From: Candidatus Heimdallarchaeota archaeon
GTDB lineage: Archaea > Asgardarchaeota > Heimdallarchaeia > Heimdallarchaeales > Heimdallarchaeaceae
Direction: 5' to 3'
DNA: 32,000 bases
NCBI GenBank assembly: GCA_030668875.1
Contig: DAOVER010000004.1
Location: forward strand, 30,001 to 62,000
Positions 17,041-27,793 of the stretch are shown in pieces. Below the pieces are notes generated by a model. The model saw nothing but the letters and a program-made list of their open reading frames with translations. It was not told the DNA's origin and searched no databases. Made by a program: the position numbers and the translations under genes. Position 1 is the stretch's first letter. Each line of letters begins with the position of its first letter.

Positions 17041-17136
17041 GGGCCAGTAGTCTAGTCCGGATAAGGCACCAGCCTTCGGAAGAAATATTCTGAAGACAGC
17101 TGGGGGTCGCAGGTTCAAGTCCTGCCTGGTCCGCCA
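17041..17136 (+). tRNA. tRNA-Arg(UCG) with intron and encoded CCA
   Basis: Acceptor GGGCCAG/CTGGTCC, D arm GTCT/AGGC, anticodon stem CCAGC/GCTGG with TCG at 17076-17078, T arm GCAGG-TTCAAGT-CCTGC, discriminator G then CCA. Confidence 0.97.
17080..17097 (+). other. 18-nt tRNA intron at position 37/38 with bulge-helix-bulge motif
   Basis: Central helix CTTC/GAAG, 3-nt bulges GG|A and AC|A, intron hairpin AGAA-ATA-TTCT. Confidence 0.92.
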
Positions 17137-22890: not shown

Positions 22891-24732
22891 TTAATCTTCA
22901 ATTCTTATTGTGGCTTGTTGTTGTCTCAATGGTCCATCCGCTTTTATGTTAAGGTTAATTACTATTGTTTCACCTGAATTTATTCGTTTTATCACGCATT
23001 TGATATTGGACAATTCAACAGATACATCAACAGTTGGAGGAGTATGATCTACAAATTCAGCAGAGAAAATTGGTTGAATGAGAGTAACATTATCTAATGG
23101 AACGTCTCCAGTATTTGTTATTGGTATCTCAATATTGTAGCTATCGTCTGATTGTTTTGTGAATATTGATGTTACTCTGTAGGATCTTTGCTTAAATTGT
23201 ACAACTATTGTAGGAACTTTCCCATCAGATCTAGCATCTGTTACAAAAGGTCTAGCCGGATGTTCAGCATATGCTTTGATTGTAGCTGGTGCTGAATGAC
23301 TGCCTTCAATTCTAGGTTTATCAGCAACACACATAGCTTTAATTTTCACTGTTTGACCTAGATCTAATTTGAGATTTTCAATAATATAATTGTAAACTCT
23401 TTCCTTCTCAATACCCTCTGAAATGCTCTCTAAGTAGTTTTTAACATCTTCATCTTCGACTACTTCTTCAACATAATCATCTTCTTTCTCGATTTCTTCG
23501 AACGTTGCAGTTTCTCTGTCTTCGATTACTGGTTTGAGCTCTTCTTTAGACTCTTCTACGAAAATAATTTCAATATCTTTACCAGATGATTCTGCTGTTA
23601 CTCTTTTAACATCAAAGTAACCTGGTATTGAGTCCTCAATTTCTATTTTACCAATTGTAGCGGATCCAGTGTTTGTGACATCAATTGTTGTTATTATATC
23701 TGAAAAAGCATAAGTAGTTACTTCAATTGGGTCAAATAGTTTGGACGCTCCAACTTTTACAACGAATATTTGTTCACTCGCTTTTTCATAAGCTATGGTT
23801 GAATGTTCAGTTATTTCGAAAAGCGCTGTATAATCAAACTTCTTAGTGATTTCAGGAAATGTTGAGGATTCAATAGTAATTTGCTCTTTCCAGATTGGTT
23901 CATTGAGATTTCCTTCTAATTCAATCATAGGTTCTTTGAAATATTTTTCTTCACCATTAACTTCTATTTTAACCTCTTTTAGTAATATCTCAAACTCACT
24001 TGCGTTTCTTAATCCCATGCTAAGTTTCCATTGATTGGGTTCAGCTGTCTCAATAACTTCTACACTTAAATCTACATTATCACAATCGCCATCTAACACA
24101 GGTTTCAATGAACTCATTTTGATTTCTGTTTCACATCTTGCTGTAATGATTCCATTTCTATATGGCTGTACATTTGTTGGATTTATTGTACAAGCAATTG
24201 TAACAATTGCGATACCTCCAGCTTCTAATTCTGGAATTACCCAATTTGCAACTCTTTCACCTTCTACAATAGTTATGTCACCTGGGTATGGTTCTATTGC
24301 TCTTATTTCTCTTGTATCCAAAGGTAAGTGCTTTTCAACTGCCAAGTTCTTGATTTTTGTATCATAATTATTTTTAACAGTAAGCTGAAGAGCTAGAGTT
24401 TGATCTACATTAAAAATCAGGTCTTTATTCAAGGAATCTATTTCGTCTCCTTTGTAATTAGTGTCAAAAATCTCTGTTATTTTGATTGATGGTTCATTCT
24501 TTGTTGTATATTCAACAATATGTTCCTTACCTGCTTCTACGTGAGGGATGTTTGTAATTGGTATTTCATCAACATCTTCACTGAAATCAGCTTCCAGTTC
24601 AATCCCCCATAATGTTGTAGATTTGCTTGGGTTAATAACCTTCAAAACACCTTTTGATTCTGTTGTAATAACCTCATCTTTAGGTCCTACTTTTATTTCC
24701 ACATGTTCTTCTAAATGTATCGTAGCTTTCAT
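22891..24732 (-). CDS. Cytoplasmic multi-beta-sandwich protein with N-terminal mu-homology (adaptin mu / delta-COP)-like domain
   Basis: No signal peptide or TM helix; repeated Ig-like motifs (TVKN, [19 protein letters not shown]). aa 1-215 align by eye with AP-2 mu2 (see findings). Confidence 0.55.
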   Translation of the reverse strand: [613 protein letters not shown]

Positions 24733-24900
24733 TATGAAACCCTCTTTGTTTATATATTAAGAATCAGTTTCTAGCAATTAATACTTACTGTTGTTGCAAC
24801 AGCACAAAATCCCTCAAACATTCTCGTTAAACTCCCTCTTTCGCTAGAATAACTAGCAACCGACAATAATTTAAAGAACCAAGGTAATAAAGAATTGATT

Positions 24901-25849: not shown

Positions 25850-27793
25850 TTACCTTAACCTTATAGTTGTACCATTTGTAGGTGCCATACTCTCTCTTTT
25901 AGTTGCTTTGTATACCCACGAAGCAAATTTATTTGCTTTTGATTCTTCACCATGAAAAACTATAACTCTTTCTGGTTTTGGAGTAACTTTGCGAATGTAG
26001 TTTTCTAATTCTCTTCTGTCACTATGTCCTGTAAATCCTGAAATACTATGAACCGGCATTTCTATATGATACATGACTGTTTTGCGGTTTTCCATAAGTT
26101 GGATCTCTGTTATGCCTTTCTGAACCTTACTTCCCATGGTTCCTTTTCCTTGGTAACTTACAAACACCATTGCGTTATTTGGATCAGAACATAGTGCTTT
26201 GAAGTATTGAACGCTTGGACCTCCACTTAACATACCACTTGTAGCTACAATTATTGCAGAATCTCCTTTTACAATTAGTTCTCGTTCTTCATTTGAAGCT
26301 ACATGTTTCATTTGTTCTGATAGGAAAGGATTTTGACCTGCATGGAATATCCTTTCTCTAAGACTCTTTGATAAAAATTCAGGGTGGGCAGTTGTTATTG
26401 CAGATGCTTCTCGAATCATACCATCTGTGTAAATTGGAATTGTAGGTATTTCCTTTGTTTTCATTAAATTCTCTAGAACAACAAGAATCTCTTGGGCTCT
26501 GCCAACAGCTAGAACTGGAATAAGAATCTTTCCATTTTTCTTTATGGTGTCATTAACAATGTTTCTCAACATTTTTTCACACTCTGCTCTTGGAGGAAGA
26601 ATATCTTGGGGTTTTCCATAAGTAGATTCAATGAAGAGCGTTTCCAATCTAGGGAATCTGCAGTTTGCTGGATCTAAAAGGTTTGATCTAGCAAATTTAA
26701 TGTCTTGTGCAAATGCGATGTTATAAACACCTTCACCAATGTGAAGATGAGGGATTGTACTTCCTACAATATGTCCTGCATTGTGGAAAGTTAAACGAAT
26801 GTCAGGTGAGATATCTGTTACTTCTCCATAGTTTAAAACTATAGTGTGAAGTACTGACTCCCTTATGTCCTTCTGTTCATATGGTATGGTTTTTCCTTCT
26901 TTTGCGGCTACATCAAGATAATCTATTTGAAGCATTGTCATTAAATCTCTTGTTGGTTTTGTAGCATATACAGCGCCCTTATACCCATATTTGAAAAGAT
27001 AAGGCACAAAACCAGAATGATCAAGATGAGCATGCGATATTACAACAGCATCCAACTGATCAACATCAAATTCAGGAAGGTCAAAGCGAGGAAAAGTATT
27101 ATTTGGTGAATTGCTCCCAACATTGATTCCGCAATCTACTAATACTCTACTTTCACCAGTTTGAATTAGAGAACTACTTCTACCAACTTCTGAGTAACCA
27201 CCTAAAGCAGTTACTCGAATTGTATCATCTCTATAAATAATGGGTCGATGAATACGCTTACCAATATTCTTCATAATTTCCTGTCTTTTCTTTGAATGTT
27301 CTTGATAGAGATGTCTAATAGTTTTTATTACCCTGGATTCAATTGGGGGTGTTCGCATAACATTTGGTCGCCACAAAGTTTTAGCGATAATTGTTCGTAG
27401 CATTTCGCCAGATTTTCCAATAATTACTCCCGGTTTCAGAGCTTCTATAATTACCTCTCCAACAAGCTCGTCAAAATCTATTGAAGTAATTTCTCCTTCT
27501 TTTCCTACCAACTCTGTAATCAAGTAAGTGGTTTCATCTTTGGGCAATCTTACACTAGGATCAGATCTAATAACAATCCTTTTTCGTAACTTCTTTGCTA
27601 ATCCCTTAACAATGGTTTCGTCGTCTACCAGTACTCTTGGATTGCGAGAATAAACTGCGACCTCTGGCCCTTCAAACTCTATTCGTGTAATTTCTGAGTT
27701 GCTAGGTAGTTCTACATGTATGTCTTTGGACGTTTGTTCTAGTACTTCTTTATAACTCAAGATATCCGACCCTTCTAATTGATCTAAATACAA
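25850..27793 (-). CDS. fttA: Beta-CASP ribonuclease aCPSF1 / transcription termination factor FttA
   Basis: KH-domain N-terminus (EFEGPEVAVY, GVIIGKSG), LGGYSEVGRS, SHAHLDHSG, AGHIVGS, ESTYG, SGFTGHSDR, HGE. Confidence 0.96.
   Translation of the reverse strand: MYLDQLEGSDILSYKEVLEQTSKDIHVELPSNSEITRIEFEGPEVAVYSRNPRVLVDDETIVKGLAKKLRKRIVIRSDPSVRLPKDETTYLITELVGKEGEITSIDFDELVGEVIIEALKPGVIIGKSGEMLRTIIAKTLWRPNVMRTPPIESRVIKTIRHLYQEHSKKRQEIMKNIGKRIHRPIIYRDDTIRVTALGGYSEVGRSSSLIQTGESRVLVDCGINVGSNSPNNTFPRFDLPEFDVDQLDAVVISHAHLDHSGFVPYLFKYGYKGAVYATKPTRDLMTMLQIDYLDVAAKEGKTIPYEQKDIRESVLHTIVLNYGEVTDISPDIRLTFHNAGHIVGSTIPHLHIGEGVYNIAFAQDIKFARSNLLDPANCRFPRLETLFIESTYGKPQDILPPRAECEKMLRNIVNDTIKKNGKILIPVLAVGRAQEILVVLENLMKTKEIPTIPIYTDGMIREASAITTAHPEFLSKSLRERIFHAGQNPFLSEQMKHVASNEERELIVKGDSAIIVATSGMLSGGPSVQYFKALCSDPNNAMVFVSYQGKGTMGSKVQKGITEIQLMENRKTVMYHIEMPVHSISGFTGHSDRRELENYIRKVTPKPERVIVFHGEESKANKFASWVYKATKRESMAPTNGTTIRLR

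Follow-up and report, generated by a model that had tools for sequence, protein, structure and literature searches.

The window analyzed here is a stretch of 32,000 nucleotides (nt) from a Candidatus Heimdallarchaeota genome, with a GC content of ~0.33, and the gene in question is an intact open reading frame (ORF) at 22891-24732 on the reverse strand, whose 613 codons specify a protein of 613 amino acids (aa), here called P0001. An earlier note, made from the sequence alone, had read the N-terminal part of this protein as similar to the mu-homology domain (MHD) of the medium (mu) subunits of adaptor protein (AP) complexes, fused to further beta-sandwiches, and had labeled it a candidate proto-coat or adaptor protein. 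The parts of the gene, with the evidence for each, are as follows.

22891..24732, reverse strand: whole gene, encoding a soluble, very acidic multi-beta-sandwich protein of 613 aa (ORF list, translation, orthologs, ratio of nonsynonymous to synonymous substitution rates (dN/dS)).
24433..24732, reverse strand: N-terminal strands of predicted MHD subdomain A, aa 1-100 (VIA alignment, ortholog PF00928 alignments, HMMER block 1).
24082..24426, reverse strand: predicted MHD subdomain B, made up of a sandwich resembling DUF11/CLIPPER and the counterpart of mu2 strand beta16, aa 103-217 (Pfam DUF11 at 108-186, family profile, hhalign, CLIPPER structure 9ifr_A).
23851..24081, reverse strand: probable extra beta-sandwich of six predicted strands, aa 218-294 (AlphaFold2 secondary structure, VIA ranges, conservation; exact boundaries inferred).
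23773..23850, reverse strand: predicted closing strands with which the chain re-enters subdomain A (counterparts of mu2 418-435), aa 295-320 (model strands 295-303 and 305-317; VIA alignment ending at model residue 319, mu2 residue 435).
23218..23745, reverse strand: first C-terminal CLIPPER_2/DUF7507-like immunoglobulin-like (Ig) domain, aa ~330-505, approximate boundaries (DUF7507 349-378 in Pfam, TIGR01451 349-370 in NCBIfam).
23383-23580, reverse strand: acidic insertion within the first C-terminal Ig domain, aa ~385-450, net charge -17 (charge by segment).
22894..23205, reverse strand: second C-terminal DUF11/CLIPPER Ig domain with a conserved tail, aa ~510-613 (ortholog DUF11/DUF7507 matches at ~523-595).

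The protein begins with the residues MKATIHLEE, and its start methionine is common to all orthologs; as only 8 in-frame codons lie 5' of the ATG, no N-terminal domain is hidden in unannotated sequence. P0001 has a net charge of -51 and 5 cysteines, and its most hydrophobic 19-residue window (aa 165-183) falls within a predicted beta-strand, indicating that the protein lacks a signal peptide and a transmembrane helix. The gene is present as a single copy in its own genome (92% complete) and has 15 full-length orthologs in Heimdallarchaeaceae (52-93% identity), the nearest of which (82-93%) come from sources named Heimdallarchaeota or Heimdallarchaeaceae. Values of dN/dS against four orthologs range from 0.08 to 0.15: in the genomes that carry it, the gene evolves under purifying selection.

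Sequence and predicted structure of the N-terminal module

Searched alone against Pfam, P0001 gave no match to PF00928 (Adap_comp_sub; profile length 259, curated cut-off 31.6 bits) even at E<=10. The sole Pfam family above its cut-off was DUF11 (PF01345; 38.2 bits versus 24.6, over three stretches including aa 108-186), accompanied by a weak DUF7507 match, and neither phmmer with P0001 nor a profile of 16 orthologs retrieved anything beyond noise from the sequences of the PDB. The mu2 similarity that had been recognized by eye is thus not significant for the single sequence. It is, however, significant through the orthologs, a family of 107 aligned members and the predicted structure. Seven of the 16 orthologs matched PF00928 below threshold (best E 2e-6, 27.8 bits), and the best alignment placed protein residues 4-184 on profile positions 16-199, spanning both subdomains. 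A profile search of 1.84 billion representative sequences yielded 363 proteins at E<=0.001, more than 90 of which cover most of the 335-aa module as one stretch. Among the 107 aligned modules, PF00928 was matched at E<0.01 by 45 (best 2.9e-10), muHD (PF10291) by 2 and DUF11 by 72; one member scored 34.9 bits against PF00928, exceeding the curated cut-off, and another aligned over profile positions 18-233. When the 107-sequence profile was searched against the PDB sequences, the only matches below E 0.05 were AP-3 mu and AP-2 mu (E 0.0016-0.035).

The earlier note had drawn five collinear blocks between P0001 and human mu2 (AP2M1), and the HMMER alignment of the family profile with solved mu2 chains reproduces them residue by residue. 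Block 1 places a mu2 stretch on profile positions 5-27 (~aa 8-30) and alone is not significant (-3.1 bits), whereas blocks 3-5 set mu2 299-401 against ~aa 111-212, from subdomain B to the start of beta16. Residues 291-396 of mu3 align to the same stretch of P0001, and this alignment runs through the beta16 equivalent.

AlphaFold2 modeling of the full protein from the single sequence gave a predicted local distance difference test (pLDDT) score of 33; modeling of aa 1-335 with the 107-sequence alignment gave a pLDDT of 96.3, a predicted template modeling (pTM) score of 0.85 and an all-beta structure of 22 strands. The top 50 Foldseek matches of this model in the PDB were all MHDs (mu2, mu1, mu3, mu4 and delta-COP; E 2.5e-12 to 1e-9), and VIA-align superposed model residues 1-319 on mu2 171-435, that is, up to its last residue, with Z 17.1, a root-mean-square deviation of 2.6 A and 220 of 250 mu2 residues aligned. 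In a scan of 48,161 PDB representatives that was independent of Foldseek, ranks 1-10 were again all MHDs (mu2, mu4, delta-COP, mu3, mu1, SGIP1, Syp1 and yeast delta-COP; Z 16.6-12.9), and below them came single sandwiches only, at Z <=11.1, including the CLIPPER domain 9ifr_A (Z 10.8). The comparison with ESM Atlas showed the same order, with eukaryotic MHD clusters at a template modeling (TM) score of 0.59 over 225 residues and bacterial DUF11/CARDB arrays at 0.36-0.43. Subdomain B is inserted in subdomain A in the predicted model and the chain returns to A afterward, which is the arrangement that defines the MHD fold; the string of independent DUF11 or CARDB domains named in the earlier note as the opposite outcome is not what the model depicts. 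Residues 1-320 very probably adopt the MHD fold, to judge from this model, and we consider it likely that the family is homologous with the eukaryotic MHDs.

Residue 1 of P0001 corresponds to mu2 residue 171 in the VIA alignment, so no longin domain or linker precedes the MHD, and the statement that the protein is without a longin N-terminus, signal peptide or transmembrane helix was correct. Past aa 217, the model contains six strands (220-288) followed by strands 295-303 and 305-317. Approximately 99 of the 319 model residues were left unaligned by VIA although the match reaches the C-terminal end of mu2, and for this reason aa 218-294 would make up an additional sandwich, nested between the counterparts of beta16 and beta17, which had been anticipated from the sequence. 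The insert carries the family-signature residues E228, P232, W235, N243 and S245 and ends beside the invariant P293; the other near-invariant family residues found in P0001 are G28, N34, Y75, E87, N121, W164 and G194. The two additional Ig-like domains predicted for the C-terminal half likewise agree with the DUF11, DUF7507 and TIGR01451 matches, with boundaries that are approximate there, since the alignment-based model covers aa 1-335. The 11-residue tail at aa 603-613 (22894-22926) is nearly invariant even in orthologs of 52-58% overall identity, and the near-invariant alignment columns at this end are 601-611.

One of the two sandwiches of the MHD is a DUF11/CLIPPER-type domain. hhalign identifies homology with the C-terminal DUF11 domain of the same protein for subdomain B (probability 97%, E 1e-10) but not for subdomain A, which makes the caveat in the earlier note, that one block also fits generic DUF11 repeats, well founded. 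A different explanation holds that P0001 is a generic intracellular Ig array of the DUF11/CLIPPER type whose likeness to the MHD stems from common sandwich descent or convergent packing, with no implication of an adaptor. The homology of subdomain B, the DUF11 match as the sole one above cut-off, and the fit of the CLIPPER structure 9ifr to one sandwich are all in its favor. A comparison by protein-language-model features points the same way, since the clusters closest to P0001 consist of DUF11 proteins from Thorarchaeota and Thermoplasmatota. A precomputed PF00928 match also occurs in a giant DUF11-repeat protein of 1601 aa (P0213); weak PF00928 matches may therefore arise from DUF11-type sandwiches alone, which calls for caution with Pfam-based catalogs of eukaryotic signature proteins. 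Set against this, the whole two-subdomain arrangement including the chain return superposes on MHDs over ~220 residues at Z 15-17, the best non-MHD structures cover one sandwich only, and several of the Pfam alignments run through subdomain A, which is not DUF11-like. On balance, we regard the generic array as unlikely and prefer the reading of a genuine MHD.

The binding pocket for YxxPhi cargo motifs was examined in the same alignments. The HMMER register sets mu2 E179 against E9, which brings mu2 D176 onto His6, the pairing given in the earlier note. With this register and the VIA range, the mu2 pocket residues F174, D176, W421 and R423 correspond to T4, H6, K298 and D300 in P0001, and all four columns vary across the 107 members (F174 to I/V/T; D176 to H/D/E/K/R; W421 to K/E/N/D; R423 to D/E/K). 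As a consequence of this variation, the YxxPhi pocket is not a family feature, and the suspicion that YxxPhi recognition is altered in P0001 proved justified. mu2 has basic lipid-binding surfaces; all segments of P0001 are net negative, and direct binding of acidic lipids is unlikely given the strong acidity of the protein.

Distribution, neighbors and promoter of the gene

The family profile, which matches P0001 over positions 1-334 with E 1e-91, matched 165 of 200 sampled Asgard genomes, 71 of the 84 of high quality, and 54 of 59 genera, with several paralogs per genome in some Asgard families. The names of family clusters carry the labels Thor, Hod, Loki and Promethearchaeota, and one the label 'Bathyarchaeota'. 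In ESM Atlas, a cluster of 52 members whose commonest phylum label is Thermoplasmatota contains the whole module (TM 0.84 over 326 residues). This occurrence rests on the taxon labels of the Atlas; Thermoplasmatota is a lineage with no known vesicle coats, and the cluster thus adds to the case for a generic array. A profile built from Heimdall sequences only also retrieved proline-repeat, Zn-ribbon proteins, and a locus search with the proline-repeat member P0075 found only an Asgard paralog. A longin-like domain was sought in the 120-165-aa N-terminal extension of the Loki paralogs and was rejected (no Pfam match; best Atlas score 0.77).

The gene is evidently lost in part of its own genus: it was found in 3 of 15 other same-genus genomes and not found in the remaining 12. 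In the genomes lacking it, the genes for the M32 carboxypeptidase and the ArsR-type regulator that flank it often lie on one contig, separated by ~116-279 bp or ~1.1-1.4 kb versus ~2.1 kb. The short gap of ~116-279 bp in three genomes (G192:C54:11173-13140, G142:C6:7510-9522 and G150:C30:27692-30262) indicates clean loss at the syntenic site. Five of the genomes without the gene were searched again at E 0.01 and gave a generic DUF11 match or nothing.

A further possibility is that P0001 leaves the cell by non-classical secretion and acts as a cell-surface or adhesin-like protein. DUF11/CLIPPER and CLIPPER_2 have been described as extracellular stalk domains (bioRxiv 10.1101/2025.04.25.650565), and the giant DUF11-repeat surface proteins that the same search retrieved have transmembrane or signal segments. 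P0001 and nearly all full-module members, by contrast, are without a signal peptide or transmembrane segment (a hydrophobic N-terminal segment occurs in just 2 of 107 aligned members), P0001 is highly acidic with few cysteines, and its best structural relatives are the cytosolic MHDs. Export is accordingly highly improbable, and a cytoplasmic location is preferred.

The neighbors of the gene in the window are of a housekeeping kind, namely genes for an AIR-synthase-like protein, enolase, the M32 carboxypeptidase, the divergent ArsR-type helix-turn-helix protein, a PUA-domain protein, FttA/aCPSF1, a NIP7-like protein and RsmB. Within Heimdallarchaeaceae, the enolase-M32 and ArsR-PUA-FttA orders are retained, and other genes may separate ArsR from the MHD gene; the loci in Loki, Thor, Hod and other Promethearchaeota have unrelated neighbors. 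At one Promethearchaeota locus (L011:8142-10188), the ortholog is followed, convergently, by genes for an AbrB/MazE-domain protein and a 353-aa Arf/RagA-like GTPase. This proximity was seen once and is therefore not evidence of linkage. Partner subunits were also sought in the genome of P0001, as the earlier note had suggested, and this search came back empty. PF01217 (sigma/longin) had no match at E<=0.1 in the 92%-complete genome and PF00928 had none, and since the control genomes were silent too, both results are weak evidence; Adaptin_N (PF01602) gave short generic HEAT-type matches only, as it did in bacterial and methanogen controls.

These data bear on the label of proto-coat or cargo adaptor, that is, a protein linking membrane proteins or small-GTPase-marked membranes to remodeling machinery, from which subunits such as mu, delta-COP or the muniscins would functionally descend. 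The predicted MHD fold, the presence of the family in most Asgard genomes searched, the ortholog two genes away from the GTPase and the report of other AP building blocks elsewhere in Asgards (Eme et al. 2023, PMC10307638) would all fit such a protein. Its prospects are reduced by the lack of a PF01217 match (with silent controls) and of a specific adaptin solenoid in the genome, the unconserved cargo pocket, the net negative charge of all segments with no basic lipid-binding patch in bulk terms, the unconserved neighbors, the gene loss within the genus and the occurrence of the module outside Asgards by Atlas labels. The evidence gathered lowers rather than raises the odds of a proto-coat function, which we judge to be very unlikely. 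In sum, the structural half of the earlier reading stands, and the functional label found no support in the partner searches, in the housekeeping and class-variable neighbors, or in the distribution (12 same-genus genomes in which the gene was not found, and the full module in a Thermoplasmatota-labeled cluster).

Upstream of the gene, comparison of the orthologous loci identified one conserved element:

24776..24801, reverse strand: conserved promoter-proximal block, 44-69 nt before the ATG (comparison of orthologous loci).

The block is intergenic and consists of a palindrome, TGTTGCAACA (24792-24801), immediately 5' of a TATA-like box, TATTAATT (24776-24786). Its core, TTGCAAC...TATTAATT, is invariant and equally spaced in five orthologous loci, two of which are at 55-58% protein identity with diverged flanks. 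One match occurs in the window versus 0.04 expected, and the block travels with the MHD gene, not with the ArsR gene. The palindrome is a candidate operator beside the TATA box. The palindrome itself occurs 18 times in the genome versus once for the reversed control; the idea of a regulon was discarded, as long ORFs contain 16 of the 18 sites, which are read there as the codons GTT-GCA-ACA. The extended motif including the TATA box is unique in the genome save for one site with 3 mismatches, providing no evidence of a genome-wide regulon. ArsR was rejected as a dedicated regulator as well, because distant orthologous loci have intervening genes between ArsR and the MHD gene and because ArsR-PUA still adjoins the M32 gene in genomes without the MHD gene.

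Several side observations were made at these loci. Two family paralogs of 583 and 803 aa stand in tandem on the same strand of an uncharacterized metagenomic contig (L012:4232-8412). At the Heimdallarchaeaceae locus of P0013 (L013:421-3234), the FttA/aCPSF1 ortholog has 937 aa and contains an intein-splicing domain (PF14890); the copy in the window (25850-27793) has 647 aa and is without that domain. Rfam reports a tRNA of 93 nt at 17041-17133 on the forward strand of the window (50.8 bits) that ARAGORN did not report, and its length suggests an intron-containing archaeal tRNA.

A proposed scaffold and its relation to known systems

Our preferred reading, to which we assign a probability of roughly 0.6, is that P0001 is a soluble, cytoplasmic all-beta-sandwich scaffold with a genuine MHD. 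Residues 1-320 would constitute the MHD, in which the DUF11/CLIPPER-like subdomain B is nested inside subdomain A. A third sandwich would occupy the loop that leads to the closing strands, and two CLIPPER-type Ig domains, the first with the acidic insertion, would follow. The family as a whole would most likely be homologous to the eukaryotic MHD. Such a protein could be a protein-protein interaction platform whose sandwich edges bind partner proteins or short peptide motifs, in the manner of the delta-COP, muniscin and stonin MHDs, and the conserved inserted sandwich would be the likeliest family-specific binding site. This docking role, which is drawn by analogy, is tentative. P0001 would probably be neither a YxxPhi cargo receptor nor the medium subunit of an AP/COPI-like tetramer, and any link to membrane trafficking seems rather unlikely. 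That the eukaryotic MHD descends directly from this cytosolic archaeal family is decidedly improbable. Under that scenario, the MHD would have arisen in a soluble archaeal scaffold when a DUF11/CLIPPER-type sandwich became nested within another one, before the split of Asgards and eukaryotes and perhaps before the Asgard phylum itself, and the proteins would already have acted as adaptors, docking membrane-protein tails or GTPase-marked membranes to remodeling machinery through the third sandwich.

A number of points weigh against the scaffold reading. P0001 alone has no PF00928 match, the strongest sequence signal sits in subdomain B, which is itself DUF11-like, and the match in P0213 shows that signal in a giant repeat protein as well; part of the sequence similarity may thus reflect generic DUF11 features. 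The fold is that of a predicted model rather than an experimental structure, the position of the insert is deduced from the alignment ranges and secondary structure of that model, not from coordinates, and the proposed function would follow from the fold alone. All four pocket columns are variable, no partner subunit genes were found in the genome and no neighbors are kept across Asgard classes. Nor is the MHD-like gene indispensable: among 15 same-genus genomes it was not found in 12, and the flanking genes are nearly joined in three of these.

How vesicle-coat adaptors arose is still an unanswered question of eukaryogenesis, and the Asgard candidates for the C-terminal part of mu have so far been weak Pfam hits in a supplementary table. 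To these the present analysis adds a complete nested MHD topology, predicted with high confidence for the family, including a Heimdallarchaeaceae orthogroup missed by Pfam. It also finds the family in most of the Asgard genomes searched and describes a conserved, predicted additional sandwich, absent from eukaryotic MHDs, and a subdomain B of the DUF11/CLIPPER type. The trafficking interpretation is tempered by the missing cargo pocket, the failure to find partner subunits, the loss within the genus and the non-Asgard look-alikes indicated by Atlas labels.

The remark in the earlier note that Asgard mu-like domains had been noticed before is borne out by Eme et al. (Nature 618:992, 2023; PMC10307638), whose Supplementary section 4.3.1 describes Adap_comp_sub as occurring sparsely in most Asgard phyla and never fused to Clat_adaptor_s, with other AP building blocks reported elsewhere in Asgards. 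Candidates in their Table S3 include Loki-, Hel-, Hermod- and Jordarchaeial members of the present family. These entries and P0001 share the N-terminal module, the motifs G-x-L-x-V-x-N-x-S...W, W-x-I-x-x-L-x-P and P-x-x-W-x-C-x-x-x-F-x-N-x-S-E-F, and the DUF11 domains thereafter. P0001 itself shows the ~330-aa three-sandwich N-terminal module, the signature motifs, the following DUF11 domains and no export signal, all of which mark the family, yet it lies beneath every Pfam threshold for PF00928. No ortholog of P0001 was found among the Table S3 entries, whose sole Heimdallarchaeaceae protein is unrelated. P0001 is thus a Heimdallarchaeaceae ortholog, invisible to Pfam for PF00928, of an Asgard family already listed by these authors. 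Their listing, as far as the supplementary section and table go, gives Pfam hits and makes no mention of any test of the fold, of a third sandwich nested in it, of the DUF11-type subdomain B or of the unconserved pocket, and a search of the literature found no paper that tests the fold of the family, describes the insert or assigns a function.

With the MHD of AP-2 mu2 (6bnt, 1bxx, 2bp5) and its paralogs mu1, mu3 and mu4, P0001 would share the nested two-subdomain beta-sandwich fold and the collinear sequence blocks. Unlike mu2, it lacks the N-terminal longin domain and linker, has an extra sandwich of ~77 aa before the closing strands and two further CLIPPER domains, does not conserve the YxxPhi pocket residues, and is acidic where mu2 has basic patches for phosphatidylinositol bisphosphate (PIP2). 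In contrast to the AP complex that surrounds mu2, its genome offers no sigma/longin match (PF01217, with silent controls) and no specific adaptin solenoid. CLIPPER, the new name of DUF11 (PF01345; 9IFR), denotes an extracellular, isopeptide-bonded stalk domain of bacteria and archaea, and CLIPPER_2 has likewise been described from extracellular stalks (bioRxiv 10.1101/2025.04.25.650565). P0001 scores above the cut-off for this family, and its subdomain B and C-terminal domains are of this type; the differences are that CLIPPER domains form extracellular stalks, often with isopeptide bonds, whereas P0001 has no export signal and would have one such sandwich built into an MHD. The predicted fold is also shared with delta-COP (4o8q, 5fjw), SGIP1 and Syp1 (5awr, 3g9h), at Z 15.5-12.9. 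The delta-COP and muniscin MHDs resemble P0001 in being without a tyrosine-motif pocket, and those of the muniscins also in having no preceding longin domain. They differ in their C-terminal position, preceded by other domains or by long linkers, and in having known partners (the WxW motif of Dsl1, the DPF motif of Eps15), whereas the MHD of P0001 is N-terminal and carries an insert domain. The delta-COP and muniscin MHDs, which dock short motifs of partner proteins, may nevertheless provide the best functional analogy for P0001.

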